From positions 20,272-84,271 of the forward strand of contig CAWFYD010000004.1 of the NCBI GenBank assembly GCA_963819945.1: 64,000 nt of DNA, in the 5' to 3' direction. Both the position numbers and the translations under genes were made by a program. Numbering within the stretch: the stretch's first letter is position 1; each line of letters opens with the position of its first letter. This DNA comes from an uncultured Acidimicrobiia bacterium (GTDB taxonomy: Bacteria; Actinomycetota; Acidimicrobiia; IMCC26256; JAENVU01). This document shows positions 1 through 64,000 of this stretch, in pieces. The notes beneath the pieces were generated by a model, which saw only the letters and a list, made by a program, of their open reading frames with translations, did not search any database and was not told the DNA's origin.

Positions 1-858
1 TGCCGCTTGCGTCCGGTTTCGTTCCCACGATGCAGCGCGCCACGCCCGGAACCCGGACCGTGCCGTCCTTCTCGAATGCGCTCACCTTTGCCATGGCGGT
101 GGCCCGAATCCGTTCCCGCGCCGGTTCGTCGATCTGCTGCAGCGCCGCGACTGCGAGCGAGACGTGCTCGCTGATCATCTCCCAATACTGCGTCGGGCGA
201 CTCGCGTCACGAGCTCGACGGTGACGTCCCACTCGGCGACGTCGCGCAGCCCCGCGCCCTCGTACAGGGCACTGACGTATCCCGGGGCAGCGCACCGGAA
301 CATGTTCGGCCCGTCCGGGTCGGGTGGCGCCAGCACCGTCTCGGTCGCGATTGCCTGCATGGCGATCGATGTCCACGGGTTTTCGTCGGGCTTGACCCAT
401 ACGGACGAGCAGAGCCGTCCGCCCGGCTTGAGCACGCGCGTGAACTCGGCCGTCGCCTTGGCTACGTCGGGAAAGAACATGTACCCGAAGCGCACGGAGA
501 CGCTATCGAATGTGGCGTCGTCGAACGGCAGATCATCGGCGCTGCACACCTTCGTCTCGATGTTGGTGATCCCTTGCGCCTTGGCTCGTCGCGCGGCGAT
601 ATCCAGCATCTCCGCGACGAGGTCGGTCAGCACGACGCGTCCCTGCGGCGACAGTCTCGCGATGCTCAGACCAGGCTCACCCGTGCCCGCGGCGATGTCG
701 AGATGCTGCTGATCGGAAGCGATGTCGAGACGCTCGATCATCGCGGCGCCGACCGGACCGAGCTGATCCGTGATGACCGCGTCCCACTTCTCCCAACCCG
801 CCGAGAGCCCGGCCCAGGTTGCTCGCTGACTGTCTCGGATCTCGTTGCCGCTCGGCAT
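1..858 (-). pseudogene. Class I SAM-dependent methyltransferase (Methyltransf_11-like); one frameshift near 205-215; 3' end leaves the window
   Basis: ORF 175..858 has the SAM motif LDIAAGTGEPG, the acidic loop VLTDL and PGGRL. After ...VTVELVT the family-typical tail PTQYWEMISEHVSLAVAALQQIDEPARERIRATAMAKVSAFEKDGTVRVPG reads on in another frame down to nt 1 (own translation). Confidence 0.8.
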
Positions 859-983
859 CTGCCCTCCGCCACCGATCCACAGAACACGAAGGCACTTCTT
901 CGTTGGGGGGCATGATGCCCGGTCGGCGCGTGCCGCTCCAACCCCGCCAGGACCTGATCCGCCCGGTCTGCGTCCGAGCGCGA

Positions 984-1962
984 CTACGAGCGAACGAGGA
1001 TCACGGTCTTGCCGCTCGCGGTGCCGGCCTCGAGCCCGCGAATCGCCGACGCAGTGTCTTCGAGGGTGAAGCGCTGGCCGATCGACGGCACGACGTCACC
1101 GGTCTCGATGAACTCGGCGAGCCGCTCCATCGAGGAATGGTGCTCCTTGCTGACGAACATCGTGAGACGCTGCTGAACGAATGGCGACAGGAGCATCGCC
1201 CGCAGCTGTCGCCCGATGCCGCCCGTCCAGCGGCCGCCGTTCTCCCCGCCCACGATCACGAGGGTGCCCTTCCGGGTCAACGCACTGCGGAGACGGGAGA
1301 TGGTGCTGCGACCGCCAATATCGAGGATCACGTCGTACCGGCGCCCGCGGTCGGCGAAGTTCTCCCGGGTGTAGTCGACGACGTCGTCGGCTCCGAGGGC
1401 GCGGACCAGTTCGACCTTGGCGGTGCCGGCGACGCCGGTGACCTCGGCACCGAGCGCTTTGGCCAACTGCACCGCGAAGCTGCCGACCCCGCCGGAGGCT
1501 CCGATGACGAGCACGCGTTGCTCGGGCTGGAGCCGGGCTACGTCAGTCAGCGCCTGGAGCGCGGCGATGCCGGAGACCGCCGAGACGGCTGCCTGCTCGA
1601 AGGTGGCACGATCCGGCATTCGCGCGAGCTTGTCCTCGCTCGCGGCGCAGTACTCGGCGAAGGATCCTGAAGCGATGCCGAAGACTTCGTCGCCGGCGCG
1701 CGAACCGGCTGACCGACGTTCCCACGGCGGCCACGCGGCCCGCGACATCCAGCCCGGGGATCGGCTGCTTCGGCCGCCTCAGACCGAAGCCGGCCACGCG
1801 GACCAGGTACGGCAGGCCGGTCATGAGGTGCCAGGTACCCCGGTCGACACCGGCGGCGTGCACCTCGACGAGGACCTCGTCGGGGCCGATGGTCGGGCAC
1901 TCGACGGTTTGGAGCTCGAGGCTGTCGGCCGGGCCGTACGACCGCTGCACAACGGCACGCAT
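984..1962 (-). pseudogene. NADPH:quinone oxidoreductase / zinc-type alcohol dehydrogenase-like (MDR family), one frameshift near 1700
   Basis: The GroES-like half MRAVVQRSYGPADSLELQTVECPTIGPDEVLVEVHAAGV...GLDVAGRVAAVG lies in ORF 1543..2055. The remainder AGDEVFG...VLVIGASGGVGSFAVQLAKALGA...GKTVILVRS lies in ORF 984..1748. The junction behaves as one extra base. ATG at 1962. Confidence 0.85.
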
Positions 1963-2284
1963 CGTCGACCGGCCGGGCGACGGCGACGACGCCGGTTCCG
2001 AGTCCCGAGGTGCCGATTCGGATTGGTTCGATCGTGGTGGGGTTGCCATCGTCATGAAGTGCGTCCTCCCGTGTGCGTGAGGCCGTGTGAGCCCGGTCGA
2101 GGGACCTCACGGAAGCTGCTGCGTGCCTACCCGGACGGACCAGGAGAAGACCGACCCCAATTATCGAAGATGCGCGTGACGATCGCTCGCGAATCAGATT
2201 GCGACCGGAAGACGGGCCGCGGGCGACCATTGGGGGCGTGCCAGAAGCCACTCGCCGTCTCCAACCCGCGTCGTGGCGTCGCGG

Positions 2285-3627
2285 TCAACCCGAGACCGCA
2301 AAGAGATGCCAGGAGCCGGGAACGCCTTTCAGCTCGTGGTCGCCTCGGTCTTCGAACTCGATGCCAGAACCGGCGACGAGGTCAACGACCGTTCGGGACG
2401 CGAGGACCTCACCGGCCGCGGCGAGCCCGGAGACCCGCGCCGCAATGTGTACTCCGATGCCGGCGACGTCCTGATCGCGTAGCTCGATCTCGGCGGTATG
2501 CGCGCCGGAGCGCACGTCGAGCCCGGACTCCCGCATCGTGTTTCTGATCATGATCAAGGCGCCGATGGCGCGCGCCGGTCCGTCGAACACTGCGAGCACG
2601 CCGTCACCGGTGTTCTTCACTTGTCGACCTCTGAAGCGTGCGAGAGAACGACGTACGACATCGTCGTGGTGGTCGAGAAGCTCCTTCCAACCACGGTCTC
2701 CGAGCGTCACGGCGTGTTGCGTCGAGTTCACGATGTCGGTGAACGCCACGGTCGCAAGCGTCCGGTCGACGTTCTGCGTATGACGGGCACCGGTGAGGAA
2801 TTCCTCGGTCTGGTCGGCGAGCTCGTCGATCGAGCTCGAGAAGAAGAGATGGTCACTGCCGGCCAGCTCGACATACTTGGCGCTGGGCAGATGCTCGGCC
2901 AGGAACCGGCCGTGCGCCGCGCGCACGTACTGGTTGCCCGCTTGATGAGCGACCAGCACCGGCTGGTGCACGGCTCCGAGCACATCTCGTACGTCGAGCG
3001 CGAACGCGGCCTGCTGCATCTGGATCGCGGGCCCCAATCCAACGGAGTGCCTGCCAGAAGTGTGCCCACCACTGCCGGAACGCGGGATCGCCGGCTCGAC
3101 TTGGCGCCACGAGCTCAGGAACTACCCCGGTCGGAAAGTCCTGCCGAAACGCTGTCAACCGACGAGAGTTGAATCTCCTCTGGAATGCCTAACGGGTAGT
3201 CAGGCGCTCGGCTCAGGCGCGCGAAGGTGTTGTACAACACCAGGCTCGAGACGCGAGACGAATGCGTTGCGGCCGCGAGGAGCGCGACCGGACCGCCTGC
3301 GTCGATGCCGATGAGGTGTGCTTGCGCACTCCCGGCCGCGTCGAGCACCGAGATGAGATCGTCGACCCACTCCTCGGCAGTTGGGATCGCGCGCCGTGCG
3401 ACCGGATCCGAGAGTCCACACCCTCGCTTGTCGAACAGGATGAGTCGGCCGAGCGAACCGAGCCGATGGAAGAAGCGCGCCGCGAACTGGTCGTCCCAGA
3501 CGAGCTCCACGTTCGACCACGACGTCGGCATGAGTGCCATGTCCAAAGGACCGTCGCCGACGACCTGATACGCGAGAAAGGAACCATCGGCCGTCTCCAC
3601 GTATTGCGTCGTCGGAAAGTCGGCCAC
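2285..3627 (-). pseudogene. Alpha/beta-hydrolase domain fused to class III adenylate/guanylate cyclase (LipJ/Rv1900c-like architecture), two frameshifts 3040-3160
   Basis: ORF 3115..3840 carries the hydrolase half (FDKRGCGLSD, HLIGIDAGGP). A bridge FRQDFPTGVVPELVAPSRAGDPAFRQWW is in the ORF 2853..3158 frame. ORF 2285..3037 carries the hydrolase end plus the cyclase (FTDIVNSTQ, KNTGDGVLAVF, GIGVHIAARV, LKGVPGSWHLFAV). GTG start at 3627 is inferred. Confidence 0.8.
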
Positions 3628-3712
3628 GTGCGGATCACAGCACACGTCGGCGTAAACAACAAAAGGCGTCGCGTGCGACGCGCTCGAGGACCGCTCCGAG
3701 CTGTGCGTGCGG

Positions 3713-5419
3713 TCACGCGCAGCGGCAGGGCACGGTTTGGTCGAGAACCTGCCAGCGGAACTCCACGGGTGGTGACGCTTCACCGCAGCCGGTGCAGCTG
3801 ATGCGCCACGCCGAACCGACCCGCGCGATCTGGAGCGCAACTTCGCCGGTGGAGAGCCGCGTCGGTTCGACTTTGGGCTTCCTCACGGCCGGCAAGCTCG
3901 TGATCTCGGGTTCGAGATACATCGTTTCCGAGCTGGGCTCGGGCAGGGCGCGTTCGAGACGCGTCAGCTCCGCCTCGTCGCTCGCGCCGAACGCCCCGCG
4001 CGAGGCGAAGGCCAACAATGCGTACTGCGTTTCGACATCTAATGGTTCGGTTGGACGCTGATAGCTCTCGAGGTGCTCCGGCGTGCGCACGACGGGGGGA
4101 CCCGGTTCGGCGATGAACTCGGCGAGCTGATCGAAACGAGCGCTGTCGAACACGCCCGTGGCCTCCGAGATCCGCTCGATCTCGTCGAGGAAGCCATCGC
4201 GCTCGACGCGGTGTGCTGGATCTTCGAGCGTGTCCTTGGCGAACATGATCACCAAGGTGGCGGCGATCCCCGCCCGTTTCCGCCGGAGGATGCGGCCCAT
4301 GCGCTGGATCATTTGGCGTCGGGTGCGGCTCGCGCTCATCACCACGCCGAGGTTCGCGTCGGGTACGTCGATGCCTTCGTCGAGGACACGGGGCGCGGCG
4401 ACCGCATCGAGCTTCCGATCGCGGAGGTCGTCGAGGATCTCGCGCCGCCGGGCGCGCCCGGTGGAGCCGGTGATCAGATCGACCGCGACGAGGGGGTCGA
4501 GCCGGTTGATCGCGTGGTTCGCCGCGCGCACGGTCTCGGTGAAGACCAGCGCGCCTTCCGCAGCCCTGATTGCGGGAGCGAGGTGGCCGAGGAGCTCGTA
4601 CTTGCCGATGCTCTGAGCCACGATCTGGCGCCGCTTCGAGAACGCGTCGAGGTATTCGCGTGCGGCGCGGCCATCGACACCGGCGTCATGTTCGGCAAGG
4701 TGCGCGACCGCGGCGATGAAATCACCGAACGGCTCGAGTGGCATGTCGCGGACCTGGCGGAGATGGCTGCGCGAGCTCACGAGGCGTTGCTCGAACGCGG
4801 CGTAGTCGGCGCGCTCCTGATCCGAGAGCGCGACACCTACGAACGCCACCCGCGGACGGGCGCACACGCCGTCCGCGATTCCTTGCTCGAAGCCGTAGCG
4901 ATAACAGATGCCGCCGAAATAGGGGAGTAGGAGATCGGTGACCGCGTCGTCGCTGCGCTCCAACGTCGCGGTGAGGCCGAGGCGTTCTTCGTATTGCGGG
5001 AGCATCGCCCGCCGAAGCGTCTTCCCGCCGAGGCCGTGGCACTCATCGGCAATCAGCAGCCCGCCCCCGAGGCCGGGTGCCGGCTGGTACGCCGCCGCCG
5101 AGTGGCGAGTCGCGACGAGTACGTCGCAATCGGTCGGTCCGTCGCGACCGCTATCGCCCAGCCGTCCGATGCGGGCAGAGGGGAGGGCCAGCGTGAGCCG
5201 GCCGTGCCACTGCTCCATGAGAACGCGCGACGGAACGAGAACCAGGACGAAGCGGCCCCGGCGCAGCGCGTCCGCGGCCGCGGCGATCGCGACATCGGTC
5301 TTGCCGGAACCGGTGACGGCTTCGATGACGCCTTGGCGTCCGCAGCGCAACCAGCTCACGAGCGCGTCGAGCTGCCAGCGGTAGAGCTCACGATCAGCCG
5401 GGTGTGCACCTGTCGACAT
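3713..5419 (-). CDS. SF2 DEAD/DEAH-box (ResIII/XPB-like) helicase with a Cys-containing C-terminal extension
   Basis: Uninterrupted 568-aa ORF. Motif I AVTGSGKT, II DECH, III TATLER, VI QRMGRILRR. About 130 aa of tail ends ...WRISCTGCGEASPPVEFRWQVLDQTVPCRCA. Confidence 0.85.
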   Translation of the reverse strand: MSTGAHPADRELYRWQLDALVSWLRCGRQGVIEAVTGSGKTDVAIAAAADALRRGRFVLVLVPSRVLMEQWHGRLTLALPSARIGRLGDSGRDGPTDCDVLVATRHSAAAYQPAPGLGGGLLIADECHGLGGKTLRRAMLPQYEERLGLTATLERSDDAVTDLLLPYFGGICYRYGFEQGIADGVCARPRVAFVGVALSDQERADYAAFEQRLVSSRSHLRQVRDMPLEPFGDFIAAVAHLAEHDAGVDGRAAREYLDAFSKRRQIVAQSIGKYELLGHLAPAIRAAEGALVFTETVRAANHAINRLDPLVAVDLITGSTGRARRREILDDLRDRKLDAVAAPRVLDEGIDVPDANLGVVMSASRTRRQMIQRMGRILRRKRAGIAATLVIMFAKDTLEDPAHRVERDGFLDEIERISEATGVFDSARFDQLAEFIAEPGPPVVRTPEHLESYQRPTEPLDVETQYALLAFASRGAFGASDEAELTRLERALPEPSSETMYLEPEITSLPAVRKPKVEPTRLSTGEVALQIARVGSAWRISCTGCGEASPPVEFRWQVLDQTVPCRCA

Positions 5420-5535: not shown

Positions 5536-6365
5536 ATGGAGCTGTCTTCGGTGACCGTGCGCGTGTTGGGCGCGGTCGAGCTGGTCGATGCTTCGGGCGA
5601 GGTTCGTGAAGTGCCGGGTCGTCGATTGCAGACCTTGCTCGCCCGCCTCGTGTCGCAGCCGGGGCAGGTCGTCTCCGTGGATGCGCTCGTTGACGCCGTG
5701 TGGCCGGACGGGCTCCCTGATGTCCCCGGATGCGGCATTGCAGACCCAGGTGTTCCGGCTGCGGAAGCGGCTGCGGCTTTCCCGGCGCTCCCACCGTCGC
5801 GACGCGTGGCCCGGGCTACGCGCTCGAGCTGGGCTCTGCGACCGTCGACGCGATCGAGTTCGAACGGGGGGTTCGAGCCGCGATCGGCGCCGAACCGTCG
5901 GTCGCCCGCTCGCTCTTGCACGACGCGCTGTCCCTGTGGCGGGGTACGCCGTACGCCGGATTCGAGGATGTCGAGCCGCTGCGGGCGGAGCAGGTCCGGT
6001 TGGAGGAGCTCCATCTGCAAGCGATCGAGGCGCACGCCGAAGCGCTGCTGGCGTGCGACGAGCCGAACCACGCCATCACGGAGCTGGACGCGTTCGTGTT
6101 GGAGCACCCGCTGCGCGCCGAGGCTCAAGCCACCCTGATGCGCGCCCTCGCCGCCACCGGGCGCGATGCCGAGGCGCTTCGCGTGTTCCAGGCGTACCGA
6201 GACCATCTGGTCGAAGAGCTGGGTCTCGAGCCCTCACCACGACTCCGACGATTGGAAGCGTCGATCGTGCGCGGTGACGTGAACCCGGGCCCCGAGTCGG
6301 CTGCATTGGCCGGCGAACCCGCTGACCGCGGCTGTCCATCGACGGCTTGTCGCGGCAACGCCTGA
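5536..6365 (+). pseudogene. SARP-family regulator (winged helix + BTAD), two +1 frameshifts; probably continuous with the hydrolase domain downstream
   Basis: wHTH VRVLGAVELVDASGEV..RRLQTLLARLV is in ORF 5449..6138. PDAALQTQVFRLRKRL is in the ORF 5588..6277 frame. The BTAD LWRGTPYAGFEDVEPLRAEQVRLEELHLQAIEAHAEALL...ALRVFQAYRDHLVEELGLEPSPRLRRLE is in ORF 5730..6365. ATG at 5536. Confidence 0.8.
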
Positions 6366-7142
6366 CCGGAAACGGGGATCGATCTCGCCTGGGGTGAGCT
6401 CGGAGCCGGGTCCCCGGTGGTCGTGGTCCCGGCGTGGATCTCCAACCTCGAGGTGATCGCCGAGGGCGGCGATCCTCGGTCGTCGCTGATCGAGCACCTC
6501 GCGCGAAATCACCGTGCGATCACCTACGACCGGCGCGGCACGGGCTTGTCGGGCGGCACGGTTCGCGATTTCAGTGTCGAGGCCGCCGCCGACGAGCTCG
6601 AGGCCGTGCTGGAACATCTCGGTGAGCCGGCGGCGCTCTTCGCGATGTCGGGGGCGGGGCCGATCGCGCTGGCGTGCGCGGCCCGCAGACCCGATCGGGT
6701 GTCACACCTCGTGCTGTTCGGGACGTACGCGAGCGGGCCCAAGACGTTCGGCGACGTCGGTCGACCGATCCTGGACCTGTTGCGTCAGCGCCCGAACATC
6801 GCGACCGAACTGTTGGCCGGTCTGTACCGCCCAGGAGCGTCGAGGTCCGCGACGCAGCAATTCGCGCGCATCCTGCGGGAGAGCGCGCCGATCGAGGTGG
6901 CGGCGGGCTACCTCGAAGCGATCTACACCACCGATGTCACTGATCTCGTCGAGGAGATTCGAGCGCCGGCACTGGTGTTGCACTACCGCGGTGATCGTGT
7001 GATCCCGTTCGCGGGTGGGGAGGCCCTCGCCGCCGCGTTGCCGTCGGCCCGTATGGTCGCGAAGGACGGCGCCTGGCATCTGCCTGATGCCCGCGACGTC
7101 GGCGACATCATCGGCGCCGTCGAGGAGCTGTTGAGCTCGTAG
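6366..7142 (+). CDS. Alpha/beta-hydrolase fold domain protein (same subfamily as the cyclase-linked modules); no own start codon at the domain N-terminus
   Basis: ORF 6417..7142. The frame is open back to TGA 6363-6365 and reads IDLAWGELGAGSPVVVVPAWISNLE, so the domain begins before the first start codon. Nucleophile elbow FAMSGAG. YDRRGTGLS. Confidence 0.75.
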   Translation, partial: PETGIDLAWGELGAGSPVVVVPAWISNLEVIAEGGDPRSSLIEHLARNHRAITYDRRGTGLSGGTVRDFSVEAAADELEAVLEHLGEPAALFAMSGAGPIALACAARRPDRVSHLVLFGTYASGPKTFGDVGRPILDLLRQRPNIATELLAGLYRPGASRSATQQFARILRESAPIEVAAGYLEAIYTTDVTDLVEEIRAPALVLHYRGDRVIPFAGGEALAAALPSARMVAKDGAWHLPDARDVGDIIGAVEELLSS

Positions 7143-7263
7143 CTCTGGTTCCACGGCGTTCCGGGTCGGCGATCCGGACCGCGAGCGTCCACGCGAGCGC
7201 GACGCGAGCGGACTTCGCGATGGTGTGTCGGACCAGCCGTCGGAAGACCCGTGGAGCGATGAA

Positions 7264-7927
7264 ATGACCGAGACCGCGCATCTCGCGCACTCCGAGCCCG
7301 TGCGTCGCCCTCACCCAATACGCGCCTGGGCCAACGCCAAGTTCTTCGAGCTGATGGACGGGTACCTCCATCGACGCCTCGGTGCCCGCAAGAAGGCCCT
7401 CTTCGCAGACTCTGCCTCCGACCGTCGTGGAGCTGGGTTCGGGAGCGGGTGCTTCGATGCGCTACCTCGCGCCCGGCAGCCGCCTCATCGCCATCGAACC
7501 GAACCCGCACACGCACGACGCACTGCGCCGCAACGCCGCACGCTACGGGATCGACCTCGAGATTCGCGAGGAAGGTGCTGAGTCGACCGGTCTCGCCAGC
7601 GCGAGCGTCGACGCGGTGATCTGCACACTCGTGCTGTGCACGGTGGAGGACCAGGCAGCTGCGCTCGCGGAGGTGCACCGCATCCTGCGTCCCGGAGGAC
7701 GCTTCGTCTTCATCGAGCACGTTGGGTCGGGTCCGGGTCCGCTCCGAGCGATGCAACGGCTGTTGCGTCGCCCATGGCGATATGTCTTCGACGGTTGCTG
7801 CCTCGACCGCGACACCGCCGCCGCGATCGCGGCTACCGGATTCGCGGACGTGCGGATGGAGAAGTACCGACTCGGTGGCCTGTTCGTGCCCGTGTGGCCG
7901 CAGATCAGTGGCGTCGCCGTCGCATGA
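7264..7927 (+). pseudogene. Class I SAM-dependent methyltransferase, one +1 frameshift near 7410
   Basis: ORF 7225..7581 gives MTETAHL...WANAKFFELMDGYLHRRLGARKKALFA. ORF 7382..7927 continues LPPTVVELGSGAGASMRYL...ILRPGGRFVFIEH. Confidence 0.8.
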
Positions 7928-7967: not shown

Positions 7968-8944
7968 ATGAGATCGGAGACGGACGGATCGCCGGCGGTG
8001 ACCGGCGCGCCGCAGTACGTCACAGATGGTGTCGGTCGGAATGGCCGCGCTCACCCCGGACGCGACGCTTTCGGCGTCGACACGTGCGATCGCCGCGGCC
8101 GGCATCGATCATGTCGTGTGCGGCGACCACGTCAGCTTCATCGTCGGTGCGGGCTTCGACGGGCTCATCGGCGCGACCCACGAGCTCGCAACCGAACCCT
8201 CGCTTCGAGCCTTCGTGGCGGTGTATCTGCTGCCCCTCCGTCATCCCGTGCTGGTGGCCCGTCAGCTGTCCTCCGTGTCCGAGCGCTACCCGGGACGGCT
8301 GACATTCGGCGTCGGTATCGGTGGCGAGGACCCCCACGAGCTCGAGATCTGCGGGATCGATCCCCGTACTCGCGGCCGCCGCATGGACGAATCCCTGGCC
8401 ATCCTCCGTGCGTTGCTCGCCGGAGCACCCGTCACTCACCACGGCGAGTTCTTCGACCTCGCCGAAGCCCTGATCCTGCCCGCGCCGCAACCACCCATCC
8501 CGATCATCGTCGGAGGTCGCTCCGACGCCGCGCTGCGCCGCGCCGGCCGCCTCGGCGACGGCTGGATCGGCATCTGGAACTCCGCGCGACGGTTCGAGCA
8601 AGCGAGCGCCATGATCGACGACGCCGCCGCGGCGGCCGGCCGACAGAACGTCGAATGGCAGCACGCAATGCAGGTCTGGTGCGGCATCGGAAGCGATCCT
8701 GCCGACCGGACGCGCGGCACTCGCTCCGACGATGGAAGGCCTGTACAACATCCCGTTCGAACGATTCGAGCGCTACAGCCCGTGCGGTGCCCCCGAGACC
8801 ATCGCCGAGTTCCTGGCGCCGTACGTCTTGGCCGGGTGCCGCACGTTCAACCTGCTGGCGTGTGCCGAGAACATGGACACGGCGGTGGCCGGCGTCTCCG
8901 AGATCCGCCGCCTCCTCAACGACGTCACTTCACCTCGCAGCTGA
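7968..8944 (+). pseudogene. LLM-class (luciferase-like, F420/flavin-dependent) oxidoreductase, two +1 frameshifts
   Basis: GGGAGG 7956-7961 lies 6 nt before ATG 7968. The frame changes between 8002 and 8040 into ORF 8026..9195 (AAGIDHVVCGDHVSF, LTFGVGIGG, IIVGGRSDAALRRAGRLGDGW). It changes again near 8710 into ORF 8732..8944 (MEGLYNIPFERFERYSPCGAPETIAEFLAPYV). Confidence 0.8.
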
Positions 8945-9083: not shown

Positions 9084-9487
9084 ATGGCCAAGTACCTGTT
9101 GCTCAAGCACTACCGAGGCGCGCCGGCGCCCGTCAACGATGTCCCGATGGACCGGTGGAAGCCCGACGAGGTCGAGGCCCACATCCAGTTCATGAACGAC
9201 TTCGCAGCTCGGCTCGAGAGCAGCGGCGAGTTCATCGACGGACAGGCGCTGTCGCCCGACGGCGTGTGGGTCCGCTACGACGGCGAGGGGCGCCCGCCGG
9301 TGACCGACGGCCCGTTCGCCGAGACGAAGGACCTGATCGCGGGATGGATGGTGATCGACGTCGACAGCTACGAGCGAGCCATCGAGCTCGCCGGTGAGCT
9401 GTCGGCCGCACCCGGGGCCGACGGCGAACCGATCCACGAATGGCTGGAGGTCCGGCCCTTCCTGACCGCGCCGCCCACCGTCACCGA

Positions 9488-9491
<4 letters not shown>
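9084..9491 (+). CDS. YCII-related / DGPF domain protein
   Basis: ATG 9084 is preceded by GAAGGAGA (9071-9078). MAKYLLLKHYRG...DGPFAETKDLIAGWMVIDV is the family signature. The stop TGA 9489-9491 overlaps the next start. Confidence 0.85.
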
Positions 9492-10642
<1,151 letters not shown>

Positions 10643-10711
10643 CGTCGCCCGCTGGTGAGTCAGCGCTGTTTGTCGAATCCGACCTGGGTGTGCTCTCCGC
10701 GGACCCGTGGC

Positions 10712-10993
10712 TCAGGCGCTCACCTGGTTGGTGACCTCGGCCGTCCTCTCCTGCGGCGGGGGTGGACCGTTCTCGAGCGCCGCGACGACCGGGCCGAGCT
10801 TCTGCTGGAATGCGTCGTTCGATTCCTTCGTGTCCCAGAGCGCAACGACGAGGAAGCCGCCCTTGGTGGGCCCAGCGAAGTGGTGGAGCTGACCGGGGGG
10901 CAGCGTGCCGTCGGCGGGATGGACGGCGGCGATGATCGCGTCGTACTGCTCCTGGGTGCCGCCCTCGAAGAAGTGCGTGATCAGGTACGTCAT
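10712..10993 (-). CDS. Small conserved hypothetical protein (93 aa), possibly ABM/Dabb-like fold
   Basis: Intact ORF with GC-rich third positions: MTYLITHFFEGGTQEQYDAIIAAVHP...FLVVALWDTKESNDAFQQKLGPVV. No motif I can name. Confidence 0.55.
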   Translation of the reverse strand: MTYLITHFFEGGTQEQYDAIIAAVHPADGTLPPGQLHHFAGPTKGGFLVVALWDTKESNDAFQQKLGPVVAALENGPPPPQERTAEVTNQVSA

Positions 10994-12020: not shown

Positions 12021-13464
12021 ATGGTCGAGCCGGGCCGGGTAGAGACCGACTACCTCGTCGTGGGTGCGGGCGCGATGGGCGTCGCGTTCGTCGACAGCCT
12101 GATCGAACACTCCGACTCCGAGGTCGTCGTCGTCGAGCGACGCCATCGAGCGGGCGGTCACTGGCTGGACTCGTATCCCTTCGTCCAGCTTCATCAGCCG
12201 TCCTCGACCTACGGCGTCAACTCGACCGTCCTCGGACAGGATCGCATCGAGCCCGACGGGAGCGAGGCCGGGTTCTACGAGCGCGCCAGTGGCACCGAGA
12301 TCTGCGGCTACTACGACGAGATCATGCGCCACCGCCTGCTCGCCTCGGGTCGGGTCCGGTTCTTCCCGATGTGCGATTACCTCGGCGATCGGCGCTTCCA
12401 ATCGCTCGTCAGCGGCGACGTCACCGACGTGACGGTGAGGCGACGAGTCGTCGACGCGACGTACATGGCAACGCGCGTGCCGGCACGCGAACCGCCGCCA
12501 TTCGCCGTCGCGGACGGCGTGCAATGTGTCCCGGTGGGCGAGCTGACGAAGGTCTCGCACGTGCCCGCCGGCTACGTCATCGTCGGCGGGGGAAAGACCG
12601 CGCTCGACGCGTTCTGCTGGCTCCTCGACCGCGGTACGCCGGCCGACCAGATCACGTGGATCCGCCCTCGAGACGCGTGGCTGTTGAACCGCAAGTTCTT
12701 CCAGCCCGGCGAAGGTGTCATGGAGACGTTCGAGGGGATCGTGCTCGAGCTCGAAGCCATCGCGCGACGGCGACTCGGTCGAGGAGATCTACGAGCGACT
12801 CGAAGCGAGCGAGGTCATGTTCCGCGTCGACCGTTCGGTCGTCCCGACGATGATGAAGGGTGCGACGCTGAGTGCCGGCGAGCTCGCCCAGCTGCGACGC
12901 ATCGACAACGTCGTGCGCCTCGGCCACGTGGAGCGCATCGACCTCGACGAGATCGTGCTCGAGCGGGGCACCATTGCGACGAGCCCGGAGCATCTGCACG
13001 TGCACTGCGCGACACCCGGGCTGAGTGACCGTCCGCCGGTGCCGATCTTCACCGACGACACCATCACGCTCCAGGTGCTGTCACGCATCAGCTTGTGCAT
13101 GTCTTCGGCGTTCATCGGCTTGGTCGAAGGGAGCGACCGGACGACCGCAGAGAAGAATCGCCTGTGTCGTCCGAACCCGTGGCCGCAGACCCCATTCGAT
13201 TTCCTGCGGGCGATCCTGTTGGGGATCAAGACCGAGCTGGGATGGCAGGACGCCGATCTCCGCGAGTGGGTCGAGGCGTCGCGTCTGAACCTCGTCGGTG
13301 GACTCGCTCGTCACGCCGACCAGAACGCCGTCCAAGCGCTGCAGGGCCGGTTCCTCGCCGCGCTGTTCCCGGCGTTGGACAACTTCGAACAGCTGTCCGC
13401 GCAAGCATCCGAGGCCGAGCGCGCGCGGATCTTCGAGCCGGAAGAGAGCGTTCCGAGCTCGTAG
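12021..13464 (+). pseudogene. FAD/NAD(P)-binding oxidoreductase, one +1 frameshift near 12760
   Basis: Dinucleotide folds YLVVGAGAMGVAFVD and VIVGGGKTALDAF. ORF 12021..13028 is continued by ORF 12715..13464. Confidence 0.75.
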
Positions 13465-17581: not shown

Positions 17582-17682
17582 GCAACCACGCGCCTGCTTG
17601 CAGCCCAGCTCCCGCAGCGGCGTGGAATCGCGGGGCCGGCTGACGAAAACCTCGAGGGCCGCCGGTGGATCAGTCCGCGGTG

Positions 17683-44897: not shown

Positions 44898-44952
44898 CAG
44901 GGCAGTGTATTGACCCGGCGGTCAGAGCTTGCGATCTCGGGCCGTGTCCGGA

Positions 44953-45996: not shown

Positions 45997-46005
45997 TCTG
46001 TCGGT

Positions 46006-47627: not shown

Positions 47628-47654
47628 GGAGGGCCCGAGGGTTACGGTTCCGTG

Positions 47655-51331: not shown

Positions 51332-51335
51332 CTCC

Positions 51336-54260: not shown

Positions 54261-55009
54261 GCTCGAGCTCCCGAAGGTCGTCACCGTCAGCGACGCGACT
54301 CCCGCCGGCGGTATCGCTCCAGGACGTGCGCGCCGGCTACGGGAACATCGAGGTGATCCACGGCCTCGACCTCGTCGTGCCGGCGGGACAGGTGTTCGCG
54401 CTGCTGGGTCCGAACGGTGCGGGGAAGTCCACGACGCTCAAGATCGCCAGCGGCCAGGTCCGACCGACGCAGGGGGCCGTCGAGATCCACGGCCGCGACG
54501 TGATCGGCACCGCGCCCGATCAGCTCGCGCGCGACGGCGTGTGCCTCGTACCCGAAGGCCGCGGCGTGTTCCCGAACCTCACGGTGACCGAGAACCTCCG
54601 CATGGCCACGTACACCGGGGTGCCGTTCGCCACCGTGCTCGAGCGGTCGTTCGAACGGTTTCCTCGTCTGGCCGAGCGGCGCAAGCAGATCGCCGGGACG
54701 TTGTCCGGCGGCGAGCAGCAGATGCTCGCCATGGCCCGGGCGCTGACCTCGGAACCGCGGGTGCTGCTGCTCGACGAGCTCTCGATGGGCCTCGCGCCGC
54801 TGATCGTCGAGGAGCTGTACGAGCTGGTGAAGCGCATCGCGGCCGACGGGGTCTCGATCCTGGTGGTCGAGCAGTTCGCGCACGAGGTGCTCGGCGTCGC
54901 CGACGTCGCCGCCATCATGTTGCACGGCCGGATCGAGCTGGTCGGACCCCCGGCGGAGATCGGCCCGGCGCTCGACCGGGCGTATCTCGGGGGATCGATC
55001 GTCGCTTAG
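54257..55009 (+). CDS. livF: Branched-chain amino acid ABC transporter ATP-binding protein LivF
   Basis: LQDVRAGYGNIEVIHGLDL, LLGPNGAGKSTT, LSGGEQQMLAMARAL, LLLDELSMGLAP. The N-terminal 20 aa are uncertain. Confidence 0.85.
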   Translation: MSSSSRRSSPSATRLPPAVSLQDVRAGYGNIEVIHGLDLVVPAGQVFALLGPNGAGKSTTLKIASGQVRPTQGAVEIHGRDVIGTAPDQLARDGVCLVPEGRGVFPNLTVTENLRMATYTGVPFATVLERSFERFPRLAERRKQIAGTLSGGEQQMLAMARALTSEPRVLLLDELSMGLAPLIVEELYELVKRIAADGVSILVVEQFAHEVLGVADVAAIMLHGRIELVGPPAEIGPALDRAYLGGSIVA

Positions 55010-56176
55010 CCGGCGGACGTCTCCGACCGGCACGTCGTACCGCCGCACGTACCCGGCGAAGCGTTCCCGGAGTGCGGCCGGATCGAGTCCGAGCTCCGTG
55101 ACGTCGTAGCGGTGCGACCCGAGCGCGCCCTTCGGGTGCGCGGCCACGTAGCCGGCGATCGCCGCGGCGGCGGTCGCGCTGAGCTCGGTGTCGACAGCCC
55201 GTGTACACGTCGCCGCACCGTCGCGACGGGATCACGGATCAGGTCCGCGTACTGGACGTCGACGATCGGGTGCTCGGGGTGAGCGTCCCGAAACGCATCG
55301 ATGCGCCGGACCGACTCCTCGAGCGTCGCGGTCCAGTGCTCCGTGATGTACGTCCGTGTGGTCCGCGTCCGTGAACGTGCCGGACAGCGTGCTGATCAGG
55401 CTGCACACGGAGGCGCACAGGACGACCGGGTCCCGGTGGATGAGCACGAGCCGCGGCATCCGGGTAGACCGCCGTCAACGCATCGAGCGCGATCGCATGG
55501 TGCGGGCTCTTGAGCGTCCAGCGCCCGCGCGACACCACCACTCTGGAGGATCTGCAGCACCTGCCGGTGGTACTCGTAGGCCGACCGCTGGTCCACCGCG
55601 CGCAACCACCGGCCGTACTCGGGCACGTTCGCAATCGCCTCCCACGACATGCTCTTGAAGTCCTGGCTCATCACCGCGATGCACTCCGTCGGACCGTCGG
55701 CGTCCTCGTGGTGGATCGCCCGCATGCGCGGGTTCAGCGCTTCGAGCATGTCCGCGCCGGCCTGGGCTGCTTCGACGCGTGGTCCACTGCGGTGGTTCCC
55801 GGGTGTCGACGGGGGCACCGGATCGGATGATTCCCAACGCAGCAGCGATCGGTTGGCCGGATCCTGGTCGAGCAGCTGACCGAGGAAGGTCGTGCCGGCC
55901 CGGAACATGCCGATCACGACGATCGGCGCGACGATCGCCTCGCCCGAGACCTCCGGGTGCCGCTGAGACCAGTCCATGACCGCCAACCGCGTTCGCAGCG
56001 CGGCCAGGAGCGTGTCGCGGATCGCGAACCCACCGAGCTCGTTGAGGTCGGCGTCGGCACGGATCGAGGCGCAGAGGATTCCGAGGCCCTCGCGGAAGTC
56101 TCCGGCGCCGAAGTCCTCGAGTCCGGTCTCCCGGCGCGCCGGCGTCGATCAGCTCGTCTGCGTCAGGTCCACTCAT
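55006..56176 (-). pseudogene. Sulfotransferase family protein, seven consecutive +1 frameshifts
   Basis: Recovered pieces, in order:
- MSGPDADELIDA.
- ETGLEDFGAGDFREGLGILCASIRADADLNELGG.
- The PAPS loop IVVIGMFRAGTTFLGQLL.
- RWTLKSPHHAIALDAL.
- RLVLIHRDPVVLCASVCSL.
- ITEHWTATLEESVRRIDAFRDAHPEHPIVDVQYADLIRDP.
- AAHPKGALGSHRYDVTELGLD.
TAA 55006-55008 overlaps the livF TAG. Confidence 0.75.
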
Positions 56177-56191: not shown

Positions 56192-57221
56192 TCAGGTGGT
56201 CAGCGTGACGACGGTCCGGCCACTGGTCCGCCGGTTGGCGTGGTCCTCGAGCGCGGCGGCGACCGCTTCCATGGTGATGCGCCGCCCGATGGTGGGGCGC
56301 ACGGATCCGGCTGCGACCAGCTCGAGCAGCGCCGCATGCACCGCCCGCCCGATCTCGGGCGGGAAGGTGTTGATCCCGAAGCGGCGGAGCTCGATCGGCA
56401 TCTCGGTGTAGCCGAGCATCACGCCGAGCACGGAGAAATTGCCCATCGACACCTTGCGCAACGGCCGTCCGGTGTTGCCCGACTCCGGGTCGTCGTTGTA
56501 GCCGACCGGAACGTAGCGCCCCTCCCGGGCGACACAGGTCCAGATGGTCTCGGTGCCGTCGCCACCGACGAGGTCGACCACGACCTCGGCGCCCTTCCCG
56601 TCCGTGAGGTCCATCACCCGGTCGAACGATGTCTTCGCTCGTGTGGTCGATCGCCGTGGCTCCCAGCCCCTCGCACAGTCGACCCTTCTCCGGGCCGCCC
56701 GCGATCGCGATCACACGCGCGCCGGCCGCGACCCCGAGCTGGATGACCGCGGTCCCGACCGCGCTCGCGCCGCCGACGACCAGCAGCGTCTCGCCGGGCT
56801 GCAGATGGGCCCGGGTATGCAGGGCAAGGAAGCCGGTGTGGAACGGCAGGGTGAACGCGGCGGCTTCGACGTCGTCGAGCTCGGGCGGGGCATCGAACAC
56901 ACCCGTCTGCGCAGCCAACGCATATTCGGCGATGCCACCGAAGGACATGTTCGTCATCGCGACGACGCGACGACCGATCCAGGGCTCCGCGCCGTCGCCG
57001 GCGGCGTCCACCACGCCACAGACGTCCATGCCGAGCGTGAACGGGATCTGACCCATCACGCTGGCGACCGTCCCGCGACACCGCGCGATGTCACCGAAGT
57101 TCAGTGACGCGGCGGCCACCGCGACGCGCACCTCACCGGGCCCCGGCTCGGGAACCGGGATGTCGGCGATCTCGAGCGCCTCCGTCGGCTCGCCGTGCGC
57201 CGTGACTCGAAGCGCTTTCAT
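56192..57221 (-). pseudogene. MDR-family quinone oxidoreductase, one +1 frameshift near 56625
   Basis: GGAGGG lies before ATG 57221. EVRVAVAAASLNFGDIARCRG, LLVVGGASAVGTAVIQLGVAAGARV. The C-terminal half is in ORF 56192..56617. Confidence 0.8.
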
Positions 57222-59138: not shown

Positions 59139-59633
59139 ATGTTCGACGACGTCCTCTCCGCCAACCAGGCGTACAGCTCCGGCTTCCGGCTCGCGGGTCT
59201 CGCACCGACCGCGGCCCGGGGGCTCGCCGTGGTGACCTGCATCGATTCGCGCATCGAACCGCTGCAGATGCTCGGTCTCGCGCCGGGCGACGCCAAGATC
59301 CTGCGCAATGCCGGCGCCCGGGTGACCGACGACGTGCTGCGCTCGCTCGTGCTCGCGGTCAATCTTCTCGGGGTCAACCGCGTCGGTGTGGTCCAGCACA
59401 CGGGCTGTCGCATGACCGGCGCGACCAATGCGGAGCTCCAGGAGTCGCTCGGCGCGACGTACTGCCACTGACGCGGGCGACTGGGACTTCCTCCCGATCG
59501 ACGACCAGACGCGCGTCCTGCGCGACGACGTCGAGCGGATCCGCAGCTGCGCCGCTGCTCCCGTCCACGCTCGCGGTCGCGGGTTTCATCTACGACGTCG
59601 ACACGGGTCTGCTCGCGCCCGGTCGTGTCGTGA
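59139..59633 (+). pseudogene. Beta-class carbonic anhydrase, frame leaves and returns (at least 2-3 frameshifts after 59440)
   Basis: VVTCIDSRIEP and VVQHTGCRM (Zn ligands C, H, C). IRSC..LAVAGFIYDVDTGLL. ATG 59139 and TGA 59631-59633 are in the same frame (165 codons). Confidence 0.8.
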
Positions 59634-60641
59634 GCCGGCTCGACCCGGTCGACGCGCTGGCGCGCGAGACCGAGTTCTCCGGCGTGGTGAGCGTCGATCG
59701 GGCGGGGGAGACCGAGTTCGCGCAGGCGTACGGCTTCGCGCACGAGCGCATCGAGCATCCCGAACACGATCGACACGCAGTTCGCCACCGCCAGTGCAGC
59801 GAAGGGCTTCACCGCGCTCGCGGTCGTGCACCTCATCGAGCAGGGACTCCTGGACCTCAGCACGACGGCTCGGTCGGTGCTGGGAGCCGACCTCCCGCTC
59901 ATCCGCGACGACGTCACGGTCGAGCACCTGCTCTCGCACCGATCGGGCATCGGCGATTACCTCGACGAGGACGAGGACGGCGAGCTCAGCGACTACGCGA
60001 TCAAGGTCCCGGTCCACGAGCTCTGGACGACCGAAGGATTCCTCCCGATCCTCGACGGCTTCGAGACGAAGTTCGAGCCCGACGAGCGGTTCTCATACTG
60101 CAACGGCGGCTTCATGGTCCTCGCGTTGATCGCCGAGCGGGCCAGCGGGGTCGGGTTCCATGACCTCGTGATCCGGTCGGTGTGCGAGCCCGGCGGGCCT
60201 CGTGGACACCGAGTTCCTTCGGTCCGACGCGCTGCCGGCGCGGGCGGCACTCGGCTACCTCGAGGTCGACGGCGCGACCGTGACCAACGTGTTCCACCTT
60301 CCGATACGCGGCAACGGCGACGGCGGCATCTACACGACCGTCGGCGGACGTCAGCAGATTCTGGCGCGCGTTCTTCGCCGGGCCAGATCGTCCTGCCGCG
60401 CTGGGTGGCCGAGATGGTGCGACCGCGGAGTCAGACCGACCATGAGTCGAGGCGGTACGGACTCGGGTTCTGGCTGCATCCGTCGAGCGCAGTCGTGATC
60501 TCGGAAGGTTGCGATGCCGGCGTGTCCTTCCTCAGCGCGCACGACCCCGAGAGTGCGATGACGGCAACCGTGATCTCGAACTCGACGTCTGGGGCCTGGC
60601 CGGTCGTCGAGCTCCTTCACCAGCAGCTCGGGCTTGCCTAG
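59630..60641 (+). pseudogene. Serine hydrolase / beta-lactamase-family protein, at least 4 frameshifts
   Basis: GTG 59630 sits in a GTGA overlap with the CA stop. SxxK as ATASAAKGFTALAV. LLSHRSGIGDY, YCNGGFMVLALI. The tail ...SGAWPVVELLHQQLGLA. Confidence 0.75.
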
Positions 60642-61452: not shown

Positions 61453-62166
61453 ATGAGCGAGCGAGGACTGGATCCGGTGCGGCTCGCCCGGATCGTGGCC
61501 GCGCTCGCGCCCGCCGACGGCAGCGAGCGACCCACAGCCGTCGTTGTGCGTGGCGTCCGCGAAGGTGATGCAGGTCACCGGGGCGGGGGTGGTGTTGATC
61601 TTGCGAGGACGCACACTCGGAACCGTCTGCTTCTCCGACAAGCAGACCGAGACCGTGGAAGATGTGCAGTACACGCTGGGCGAGGGTCCGTGTGTCGATG
61701 CCTTCGCGACCAAGGCGCCGGTGCTGGTCCCGGATCTGGAAAGGCTCGGAACGGCGCGCTGGCCCGGGTTCCGCGAGGGAGCACTCGACGAACGGCGTCC
61801 GGGCGGTGTTCGGATTTCCGCTGCTCGTCGGGGCGGTGTGCATCGGGGCGCTGAACCTGTACAACGCCGAGATCGGCCCGCTGACCGAGGACCAGATGGA
61901 AGATGCGGTGCTGGTCGCCCACGTCGCCGGGCGCGCGGTCATGGGGTGGCAGTCGGTGGCCGGACCGGGTTCGCTCGCGCTGGCAGCTCGAGCACGCCGA
62001 CGCGCACCGAGCCGTCGTCAACCAGGCGGCCGGAATGGTGTCGGTACAGGCCGACGTCACCGTGGAGGAAGCCCTGATGTTGATCCGCGCGTACGCATTC
62101 GCGGAGGATCGCCCGATCACCGAGGTCGCCGCCGACGTCGTCGGCCGCGCCCTGCGCTTCGACTGA
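61453..62166 (+). pseudogene. GAF-ANTAR RNA-binding antiterminator-type regulator, three +1 frameshifts
   Basis: The GAF part is LCVASAKVMQVTGAGVVLI..LGEGPCVDAF..GVRAVFGFPLLVGAVCIGALNLY. The ANTAR part is AVVNQAAGMVSVQADVTVEEALMLIRAYAFAEDRPITEVAADVV. The frames run 1,2,0,1. Confidence 0.8.
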
Positions 62167-62223
62167 AGGACCGAATGCCGAACCGTACAATGATCTCAGC
62201 ACCGCTCGATTGGAAGGGCAGTC

Positions 62224-62961
62224 ATGACTCGAGAGCAGCTGCTTGTCGAGACCTTCGTCGATCTCGCCGACACCCTGGTGGATACCTACGACATCATCGA
62301 CTTCATGCATACCCTCGCCGAACGGGGCGTGGAGCTCCTCGACGTCTCGGCGGCAGGCATCATGCTGGTGGACAGCGACGGCAATCTGCGCCATGCGGCG
62401 TGCTCGAGCGAGCAGATGCGCCTGGTGGAGTTCTTCGAGCTCCAAGTCGAGGAAGGTCCGTGCTTCGACGCGTTCCGCGACGCCGCGGCCGTCCGCAGCG
62501 ACTCTCCCGAGGACGCCGCGGCGCGCTGGCCGCGCTTCGCCCCGCACGCCGCTACCAGCGGGTACGTCTGCGGTCTCGGCCGTACCCATGCGGTTGCGCT
62601 CCCAAGTGATCGGCGCCCTGAACCTCTTCTCGTCCGACTCCCGGTGCGCTCAGCGAGGACGATCTCCGGGTCGCGCAGGCCATGGCGGACATCGCCACGA
62701 TCGGTGTCCTCCACGAGCGGGTGGTCCGCGAGTCGCGGGACGTCTCCGCCCAGCTCGAATTCGCACTCGAGTCCCGGATCGCGATCGAGCAGGCGAAGGG
62801 CATCGTCGCCGAGCACAACCACATCTCCGTCGACCTGGCGTTCGACCTGATTCGGCGCTACACCCGCGACCAGAACCAGCTGCTCAGCGAGACCGCCCGC
62901 AAGATCATCGAAGGGACGCTGCGGCCGGAACAGCTTCCTCGTGGCTCGCCTCACCTCCTGA
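62224..62961 (+). pseudogene. GAF-ANTAR regulator (paralogue), three +1 frameshifts
   Basis: VETFVDLADTLVDTYDIIDFMHTL..AAGIMLVD..EEGPCFDAF..VPMRLRSQVIGALNLFS. The ANTAR part is LESRIAIEQAKGIVAEHNHISVDLAFDLIRRYTRDQNQLLSETARKII. The frames run 1,2,0,1. Confidence 0.8.
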
Positions 62962-62990
62962 ACTGCCGGCAACCGGGATCGGGTCTGGCG

Positions 62991-63510
62991 TCAGTGCTCG
63001 AGGAAGGGAGCGAACGCGGCGGGGTAGACGACCCGACCGCGCATCGCCGGGTCGTACGCCGCGAGGCGGATCACCTGGGCGGCTTCGGTGGCGCCCACGA
63101 CGGCAACGTGATGTGGATGCCGTGGGCCACTGAATGCTCGAACCCCAACCGGCCGTAGAACGCCGGATCACCTTCGAGGACGATGAGCGGCTCGCCCCTC
63201 GCGTCGGCCGCGGCAGTGACCGCGGCGAGGGCCGATCCGACGCCTCGACCATGGAAATCGGGCCGCACCGCGAGGGGCGAGAGGCTGGCGATTCGCCGCT
63301 CCCTGGGGCCGTCGACCAACGCGACCTCGCTGACCATCACGTGGCCGATGACCGCGCCGTCGACCTCCGCGACGAGCGAGAGCTCGGGACGAAGCCGGGG
63401 GACCTGCGGATCGCATCGACGAGCTCGGCTTCGGCCCGGGAGCCGAACGCCGCCGCGACGATGCTCGCGATCTCCGCTGCGTCCTCGCCGGTCTCCGGCC
63501 GGATGTTCAC
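62991..63510 (-). pseudogene. GNAT-family N-acetyltransferase, two -1 frameshifts
   Basis: VNIRPETGEDAAEIASIVAAAFG.., LSPLAVRPDFHGRGVGSALAAVT (acetyl-CoA motif Q/RxxGxG/A), FYGRLGFE. The tail VIRLAAYDPAMRGRVVYPAAFAPFLEH has its stop at 62991-62993. Confidence 0.75.
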
Positions 63511-63511
63511 A

Positions 63512-64000
63512 TCAGCGTTCTAGTGCAGCAGCCACCTTCGCCGCCGCGCTATCCCCGACGACATCGAGCGCCTCGGTGCTGCGTTGCGCCCGGGCGAGCA
63601 CGAACGCGCCTTCGATCGCACAAAACAGCTCCACCGCGATCTTGCGGGCCTGCTCCGCCGGCATGCCCGCCCGGACGAAGCGCGCCTCGAGGACCGTGAG
63701 CCACGACTCGAACGCCGTCGCCGCGGCGATGCGCATCGGCTCGCTCGCGCTCGACACCTCCAGGGCCATCGTCGCGATCGGGCACGCGTCCTCGTAATTC
63801 GTCATCTCCAGGACCTCGGCGGCGCCCGCGCAGAACGCCCGGGTCGCCTCCACCACATCCGCGTCCTCGGTGAAGAACAGCTCCACCAGCTCGCGGTAGA
63901 TCGCGCCGCCGGCTTCGAGCGCGGCGACGCCGAGCTCCTCCTTGCCGCCGGGGAAGTAGTGGTAGATCGACCCGTACGGTGCATCGCTGGCATCCACGAT
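63512..64000 (-). CDS. TetR-family regulator, C-terminal ligand domain; N-terminal HTH lies beyond the window end
   Basis: The ORF is open to nt 64000. GSIYHYFPGGKEELGVAALEAGGAIY is the typical junction after the TetR HTH. Stop at 63512-63514. Confidence 0.7.
   Translation of the reverse strand: MVDASDAPYGSIYHYFPGGKEELGVAALEAGGAIYRELVELFFTEDADVVEATRAFCAGAAEVLEMTNYEDACPIATMALEVSSASEPMRIAAATAFESWLTVLEARFVRAGMPAEQARKIAVELFCAIEGAFVLARAQRSTEALDVVGDSAAAKVAAALER

Follow-up and report, generated by a model that had tools for sequence, protein, structure and literature searches.

Single-base frame breaks in a 64-kb stretch of an Acidimicrobiia contig are probably assembly consensus errors

The stretch of DNA analyzed here over its full length of 64,000 nucleotides (nt), hereafter the window, comes from the genome of an uncultured member of the Acidimicrobiia (Actinomycetota), and about 35 of its approximately 58 genes (about 60%) are broken by shifts of the reading frame, mostly through one extra base. 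We consider it highly probable, at roughly 0.93, that these frame breaks are consensus errors of the deposited assembly rather than traces of pseudogenisation or recoding, judging from the comparison of the window with related sequences. The consensus would have gained some 90 single bases absent from the organism and lost a few real ones, the errors coming in patches of a few kb; they would have arisen in the building or polishing of a consensus from noisy reads, after which gene callers would have produced truncated or chimeric open reading frames (ORFs). An earlier reading of the window, hereafter the original prediction, had already claimed that more than half of the genes are frameshifted, which is the proportion found here, and had favored consensus error over decay or recoding. 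The latter preference is supported by a spectrum of lesions that consists of insertions and deletions (indels) only, by repaired genes that are conserved and free of in-frame stops, and by the lack of lesions shared with the relatives compared and of a motif at the mapped sites.

Frame changes were followed with a seven-state Viterbi tracker based on codon-position base frequencies and a stop penalty, the G+C content of the window being 66-73%, with about 86% at third codon positions. The tracker returns 67 same-strand changes of type '+1' and 21 of type '-1' in the 64 kb, while a control set of 17 high-GC loci (348 kb) gives 79 '+1' and 105 '-1', namely 0.53 per kb, the frequency of ordinary gene boundaries. 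Scaled to 64 kb, the control rate corresponds to about 14 '+1' and about 19 '-1' changes and leaves the window with an excess of about 52 '+1' and almost no '-1'. The tracker mis-signs pairs of close insertions as '-1' and places short stretches on the wrong strand, and its list of junctions is used as a uniform detector that has been checked against the controls. Two close insertions lie behind its '-1' calls at 55214+55194, 35147+35254 and 60340+60380, and the '-1' junctions at 36220, 15717, 25398, 63388 and 63110 correspond either to one missing or to two extra bases, the homologues compared at these sites being distant. Altogether, the window has about 97 putative single-base frame breaks, equivalent to 1.5 per kb and locally 5 per kb, including the real breaks at 54306-54313 and 33475-33680, which are not plain gene boundaries. 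Validated events comprise 65 extra bases versus at most 8 missing bases (binomial P = 3e-12), in line with the bias toward insertions of about 8:1 that had been estimated before; the missing bases that are secure in DNA alignments to relatives are only three, all in the gene of an ATP-grasp enzyme, a few others being doubtful.

Once the frame segments are joined, continuous alignments with Pfam and NCBIfam hidden Markov models cross more than 30 junctions, which agrees with the earlier impression that each segment is typical of its protein family; at the carbonic anhydrase junctions 59460 and 59551, the Pfam and NCBIfam alignments end before both sites and give no confirmation. The events are unevenly distributed, as had also been predicted, with a dispersion index of 2.3 in 2-kb bins (P < 2e-4) and seven event-free gaps of at least 2.4 kb versus 2.4 expected (P = 0.0016). 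The clustering is thus real but moderate.

Seven genes were then repaired by comparison with orthologues, the four closest of which have 84-95% amino-acid identity, using our own protein-to-DNA aligner that may skip one base (called extra) or pair a residue with two bases (called missing). References at the DNA level were the JGI contigs L086 and L087, from metagenome 3300082225, and L152, from metagenome 3300081966, all three of them syntenic with the window, with nucleotide identities of 83-92% (L087 89%, L086 83-88%, L152 92%). A metagenome scan with an eight-segment query yielded additional references of 84-91% identity for 5.5-8.9 kb and 12.0-13.4 kb, among them L120/L114 (91%) and L088 (84%), a scan in which the closest population (JGI 3300082225 / 3300081966) was not reached. 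L081, L082 and L083 are related but scrambled contigs, usable as references in patches only. The features on which the comparison leans are the following:

55006-56176, minus strand: sulfotransferase (Sulfotransfer_3), with seven extra bases (56142, 55530, 55454, 55353, 55214, 55194 and 55018-55030), no missing base and no stop
39127-40568, plus strand: secreted alpha/beta hydrolase (Abhydrolase_10), with five extra bases (39631-39634, 39814-39817, 39867, 39925 and 40388)
40637-41808, plus strand: ATP-grasp enzyme, with five extra bases (40709, 40807, 40930, 41157 and 41374), three missing bases (41059, 41547 and 41677) and no stop
20586-22215, minus strand: GT2 glycosyltransferase, with four extra bases (21471, 21329, 21019 and 20934) and probably two more, at about 20760 and about 20605, in its C-terminal part
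59620-60630, plus strand: beta-lactamase-family protein, with four extra bases (59747, 60189, 60340 and 60380), no missing base and no stop
56197-57221, minus strand: Zn-dependent dehydrogenase (ADH), with one extra base at 56627 and 93% amino-acid identity to its L087 orthologue
12027-13450, plus strand: FAD/NAD-binding protein, with an extra base at 12764 and 83% identity after repair
18656-19399, minus strand: FG-GAP repeat array, with extra bases at 19276, 19152, 18957, 18946 and 18913

The joined translation of the sulfotransferase (56176-55009, equivalent to 387 codons plus 7 nt) aligns in BLASTP to residues 1-387 of the orthologue P0041 with 84% identity, and the Sulfotransfer_3 profile alignment spans four of the junctions. 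The hydrolase (39127-40563) aligns to residues 1-478 of P0162 with 90% identity and no gap columns, missing bases or stops, and its joined frames match the Abhydrolase_10 profile with E = 1e-129. The ATP-grasp enzyme has 95% amino-acid identity to P0281, and its three missing bases are real deletions rather than pairs of insertions, because the length tally is 1170 + 5 - 3 = 1172 nt. The GT2 protein (22215-20586) shows 64% identity to P0401 and longer homologues, without missing bases or stops, and three of its junctions fall within a Glyco_trans_2_3 alignment that covers positions 1-197 of 198. The beta-lactamase-family protein is also 64% identical to its homologous ORFs, including that of L098/L099, and its profile alignment spans three junctions. 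All of the orthologues P0041, P0162, P0281 and P0401 are single uninterrupted ORFs.

The shifts previously counted by eye, seven in the sulfotransferase, five in the hydrolase and four in the GT2 gene, are therefore reproduced in number and sign by frameshift-aware alignment to orthologues, the check that the original prediction had proposed, with two more probable in the C-terminal part of GT2; neither is the ratio of insertions to deletions even, nor their density uniform. Hence, the lesions are single-base indels, overwhelmingly 1-nt insertions, in otherwise intact and conserved coding sequence, with up to eight in one gene of 1.17 kb (ATP-grasp), and their removal restores full-length proteins. 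Frameshift-aware alignments reveal no in-frame stop in any repaired gene. The single in-frame stop reported before, the TGA at 6363, does not survive this analysis: it lies out of the true frame, in the short stretch that runs from the missing base at 6324-6339 to the extra base at 6373.

Comparison of DNA sequences with L086, L087, L152, L120, L114, L088 and L082 identified 39 single bases that are present only in the window, none of which is shared with any of these relatives at 83-92% nucleotide identity; five additional bases from the FG-GAP repeats bring the placed insertions to 44. L087 aligns with 57576-53169 over its whole length, and in this alignment 11 single bases are extra in the window, which also lacks one intergenic base, while the remaining indels measure 3, 6 and 12 nt; natural indels between the window and its relatives are multiples of 3. 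Against L086 the window shows 13 extra bases and one missing, which falls in a spacer of poor alignment; against L152 it shows 10 extra and three missing. All five sites of the hydrolase agree in L086 and L152 independently, while the patches covered by L120/L114, L088 and L082 add 5723, 5777, 6373, 7232, 7412, 8702, 12764, 13579, 13679 and 31194. Assemblies of related genomes thus lack the indels at the same positions. Moreover, of the four repaired genes so compared, three are at least as identical to the orthologue in amino acids as in nucleotides (95% vs. 92% for ATP-grasp, 93% vs. about 89% for ADH; the exception is the sulfotransferase), and these genes have therefore been under purifying selection up to the present. 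The long ENA contigs of relatives, L081 and L082, show normal counts of frame changes in the Viterbi analysis, and intact copies of the window's genes are found on contigs of Mb scale; therefore the problem is specific to this contig or bin.

The FG-GAP array offers an internal comparison, consisting of six tandem, nearly identical units of 123 nt (41 amino acids, aa) that measure 124, 124, 123, 126, 123 and 124 nt; the units scored are the first five, the last one being divergent at its 3' end. The insertions at 19276 and 19152 are the identical extra base in the same context, gtgcGttcc, of two successive units, and another unit (that of 126 nt) has three extra bases. A homologous array is found in L081 at 81-84% nucleotide identity.

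The 44 placed insertions, read on the plus strand, are 24 C, 12 G, 4 A and 4 T, namely 82% G or C, the bases that the original prediction had named. Its additional claim that the extra base often lengthens a short run does not hold, since the inserted base equals a neighbor in only 10 of the 44 sites (23%), compared with 55% for composition-matched random insertion (P = 1.5e-5). In the other 34 (77%) it is unlike both neighbors, in contexts that are typically G[C]G, C[G]C or A[C]G but also include G[A]C and others; no run exceeds 3 once the base is inserted. Homopolymer miscalls, the nanopore homopolymer subtype of error, were rejected on these grounds. No common sequence motif is present among the 44 mapped contexts.

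Two explanations take the extra bases as real, and the evidence so far bears on both. Programmed +1 frameshifting, as known from bacterial prfB and from Euplotes, occurs at sites conserved among orthologues, where a defined shift motif is flanked by a stop or a rare codon. Pervasive frameshifting of this kind, or correction at the level of transcripts, would leave the genes of the window functional and would fit the near-uniform +1 sign of the breaks as well as the coding potential that is intact on either side of the junctions; as in the known cases, there is one base to skip. However, the window differs from these cases in having dozens of sites with diverse neighbors and no motif, and in no orthologue is there a shift in the same place. 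Missing-base (-1) events occur in the same gene as extra bases (ATP-grasp), the old frame is open long after the junction so that no stop or hungry codon could drive the shift, and the clean neighboring genes use ordinary decoding. Programmed +1 decoding is thus excluded in practice.

The other explanation is that a very recent, insertion-biased burst of mutation, for instance in a mutator lineage, has disabled about 60% of the region's genes. Mycobacterium leprae has a pseudogene-rich genome derived from reductive evolution, in which many genes are disrupted in frame, and the large fraction of disrupted genes is a likeness between such decay and the window. Real decay involves deletions, nonsense codons, an elevated rate of amino-acid change and lesions that are common to related strains, and the spectra of spontaneous indels in bacteria are biased toward deletion. 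These further marks of decay are not seen in the window: the repaired genes show neither deletion bias nor accumulation of nonsense and missense changes, and no lesion is inherited in common with the close relatives at 83-92% nucleotide identity. A mutational burst would accommodate the fact that the lesions are part of the deposited sequence, local hypermutation could in principle produce their clustering, and the insertion common to two adjacent FG-GAP units is also obtainable by duplication after mutation. Against it stand the 65 insertions versus at most 8 deletions, with no nonsense codons, larger deletions or excess of amino-acid change; the preserved identity of four repaired genes to their orthologues (84-95%), with the amino-acid level at or above the nucleotide level in three of the four; the location of the insertions away from slippage-prone runs; the absence of lesions common to any relative; and the presence of up to eight hits in a 1.17-kb gene, which neither selection nor drift would have produced once the first hit had killed it. 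We regard real pseudogenisation as very unlikely on this evidence. That the bases are physically in the DNA, by way either of a recent and nearly pure burst of +1 insertions sparing neighboring blocks or of a genome that tolerates or corrects +1 breaks at expression, appears to us highly improbable.

The lesions belong to the deposited record and nothing was added after deposition. Seven intact proteins of the window match the public protein collection residue for residue, all on one NCBI/ENA contig of 302,988 bp, and the same contig contains P0161, the 842-aa ORF of window positions 38872-41400, at 100% identity and coverage. The first third of P0161 is the N-terminus of the hydrolase, while the remainder is out-of-frame read-through. 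Similarly, P0549, in the public database, is a 136-aa fragment of the GT2 protein that ends with an out-of-frame, Arg-rich tail. These two ORFs, P0161 and P0549, exclude the candidate explanation that the window was synthetically spiked.

How the preferred consensus errors arose can be approached from the inserted bases themselves. In the region covered by eight references, the inserted base equals the alternative allele of the relatives at an adjacent column in four of five sites (null 0.20), namely 5723 (G or T), 6373 (A or C), 7232 (G or A) and 7412 (T or C). Likewise, at site 39867 the window has both A and C where L152 has A and L086 has C, and its GGCG at 39631-39634 corresponds to GGC in L086 and to GCG in L152; in these comparisons the alleles of the relatives are a proxy for alleles within the sample. 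Many insertions may thus mark a single site at which co-assembled strains differ and both of their alleles were retained next to each other, a tentative proposal to which we give somewhat less than even odds. Merged alleles would explain that the inserted base differs from its neighbor, that it is the alternative allele in relatives, that insertions dominate and that the errors come in blocks. There is a parallel in the collapsed alleles of Trypanosoma brucei (Cosentino et al. 2021, PMC8445201), in which nearby allelic variants cause misalignment and indel errors, with apparent frameshifts, in the long-read consensus of a collapsed diploid assembly; about 98% of those errors are indel or complex, and variant density is very uneven, with blocks of near-zero heterozygosity. 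Unlike this case of a diploid eukaryote with reads in hand, the 'alleles' of the window would be those of co-occurring strains, deduced only from the polymorphism of relatives.

Alternatively, the artefact may consist of random insertion errors from noisy long reads of low coverage, or from unpolished long-read patches in a hybrid assembly, without any strain polymorphism; granted an artefact, this has close to an even chance, and we take long-read noise and merged alleles to be about as likely as each other. Long-read noise is consistent with an indel-only and insertion-dominated spectrum, with the additional occurrence of deletions, with the 28 of 35 sites that have no allele signature, and with the alternation of clean and dense blocks of 1-5 kb, which is expected if short-read contigs were bridged by raw long reads or if coverage fluctuates. 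It accounts poorly for the bases inserted, given that random insertion should copy a neighbor in about 55% of cases instead of the 23% observed, and for the match of four out of five inserted bases to the neighboring alternative allele in the region with many references.

Several points weigh against the interpretation that we favor. The artefact is inferred rather than observed, and none of the sequences found belongs to the same population (above 98% identity), in which the intact version would be visible directly. Its signature is unusual for nanopore consensus, the indels of which concentrate in homopolymers according to Sereika et al. 2022 (PMC9262707). A test of the insertions for enrichment at third codon positions (phase 0 in 11, phase 2 in 6 and phase 1 in 3 cases) does not decide the matter, the placement of gaps being biased toward mismatches. 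As to merged alleles in particular, their signature is marginal overall, in 7 of 35 sites versus 3.5 expected, and is present in none of the 18 sites with a single reference, and the three secure deletions of the ATP-grasp gene are not accounted for.

Indel errors in long-read assemblies were reportedly noted by Watson and Warr in 2019 as a cause of gene fragmentation. The same effect is well documented in the proovframe preprint (10.1101/2021.08.23.457338), in Kastor (PMC12007338) and in Sereika et al. 2022 (PMC9262707), and the window resembles such long-read genome and metagenome errors in its indel-only lesions, truncated or chimeric ORFs, otherwise intact coding sequence, amenability to frameshift-aware repair and location on a long contig of a metagenome-assembled genome (MAG). 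It differs from the usual errors of long-read assemblies in the predominance of insertions over deletions by at least 8:1 and in a density of 1.5 per kb (locally 5) that is high for a polished assembly. Moreover, whereas the indels of nanopore consensus are described as homopolymer-derived by Sereika et al. 2022 (PMC9262707), 77% of the insertions mapped in the window have no identical neighbor and the runs do not exceed 3. Of the original proposal of uncorrected long-read-type consensus errors, consensus error is therefore supported while the long-read type is plausible only, its signature not being of the homopolymer type.

If the breaks are errors, they carry little biological weight, since the genes would be ordinary Acidimicrobiia genes and the 'pseudogenes' not real. 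Their weight lies in data quality: a public NCBI/ENA contig would contain about 1.5 frame-breaking errors per kb, and broken or chimeric ORFs such as the 842-aa hydrolase fusion are already representatives of protein-database clusters. Pseudogene counts, pangenomes, surveys of domain architecture and training sets of language models that are built on this record would inherit the errors. Strain collapse during consensus, if confirmed with reads, would constitute a specific and screenable failure mode that is distinct from the homopolymer problem.

In other respects, the window and its genes are ordinary for the genome of an uncultured member of the Acidimicrobiia. Its P450 has nearest orthologues of 64-66% identity in MAGs of Acidimicrobiia/Actinomycetota, synteny being restricted to the P450 gene in the scan of genome contigs, and homologues of further genes carry source names of the form 'MAG: ... 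[Acidimicrobiia bacterium]'. Scans of the 64 kb for tRNA genes and Rfam families gave no tRNA genes and no Rfam matches. The clean blocks listed earlier are confirmed as runs of intact ORFs:

27011-30613: largest clean block, with four intact ORFs (hypothetical protein, TauD, SDR and P450)
3713-5419, 9084-10993, 16193-18576, 43119-46491 and 49997-52680: further clean blocks, runs of intact ORFs

The predicted dense blocks of 18.7-19.4, 23.0-26.8, 37.6-41.8, 55.0-56.2 and 59.1-63.5 kb are equally confirmed, except that the one said to start at 23.0 kb is clean over 23.0-24.3 kb, its dense part beginning at 24360. Frame breaks are found in the following additional genes:

5555-7137, plus strand: BTAD + alpha/beta-hydrolase regulator, extra bases at 5723, 5777 and 6373, missing base at 6324-6339
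7138-7922, plus strand: methyltransferase, missing base at 7174-7178, extra bases at 7232 and 7411-7412
8008-8940, plus strand: luciferase-like monooxygenase, extra base at 8702
13527-14486, minus strand: nitronate monooxygenase, extra bases at 13679 and 13579
22977-24527, plus strand: OmpR-type / hydrolase / cyclase regulator, extra bases at 24360 and 24427, with 22977-24360 clean
24661-26823, plus strand: AAA/TPR regulator, seven frame changes by composition, of which 24803, 25039 and 25398 lie within one NCBIfam alignment
33472-34575, plus strand: sensor histidine kinase, frame +0 to +1 near 33530 and +1 to +2 near 33672, from inspection of translations
34641-35565, plus strand: ApbE flavin transferase, two extra bases (35147 and 35254)
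37642-38996, minus strand: hydrolase-cyclase fusion, extra bases at 37905 (within the Guanylate_cyc alignment), 38888 and 38938
41809-42713, plus strand: DMT-family transporter, extra base near 42237, within a DMT_1 alignment of positions 1-274 of 276
47649-48471, plus strand: LigD primase-polymerase domain, extra base near 48126, within the LigD_Prim-Pol alignment (E = 2e-83)
51336-55005, plus strand: LivH/M/G/F-type ABC transporter in one long ORF, an extra base at 54306 placed at the DNA level and another near 52690-52716 from the Viterbi tracker only
61549-62911, plus strand: two tandem GAF-ANTAR regulator genes, '+1' frame changes at 61775, 61959, 62569 and 62639, the last two in one GAF_2 alignment

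The kinase had been credited with three shifts, two of which are recognized near 33530 and 33672; the third, an extra base near 34545 that removes the stop codon and fuses the ORF to ApbE, is probable. Pairs of a missing and an extra base at 6324-6373 and 7174-7233, 35-60 nt apart, enclose a short out-of-frame stretch after which the frame is restored, and could be either paired consensus errors or divergent linker sequence.

After repair, LivH, LivM, LivG and LivF form one continuous ORF of about 1220 aa. The extra base at 54306 falls inside a region that in L087 is covered by one ORF of at least 606 aa spanning LivG and LivF, and at least part of the Liv fusion is genuine because of this ORF. 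Fusions of alpha/beta-hydrolase and adenylate/guanylate-cyclase domains form a set of paralogous regulators at 2328-3716 (minus strand), 22977-24527 (plus strand) and 37642-38996 (minus strand), one of which has an OmpR-type DNA-binding domain. They represent a locally expanded family, besides which there is the BTAD + hydrolase protein at 5555-7137 (plus strand). In L082 (ENA contig_59519), the gene calls at 18147-19530 separate an Abhydrolase_1 gene from an adjacent, weak Guanylate_cyc fragment, a split that may be the same kind of frame break, even if the overall frame-change counts of L082 are normal.

Differences in gene content are also apparent among the relatives. The segments at 37.6-38.8 kb and 40.6-42.7 kb are absent from L086, which jumps from 40608 to 42718, while L152 contains 40.6-42.1 kb; the presence of gene blocks therefore varies among close relatives. 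A Zn-dehydrogenase copy of L086 lacks 87 nt and 282 nt of the window, both in frame (window 35894 and 36222; L086 766 and 1007), and is called at only 233 aa with weak Pfam matches, so that the L086 copy may be the degraded one. Finally, a cation-efflux homologue at 30597-31258 (plus strand) starts at the stop codon of the P450 and aligns only to residues 96-316 of a 317-aa protein of L082; it is possibly a truncated remnant or marks a point of rearrangement.

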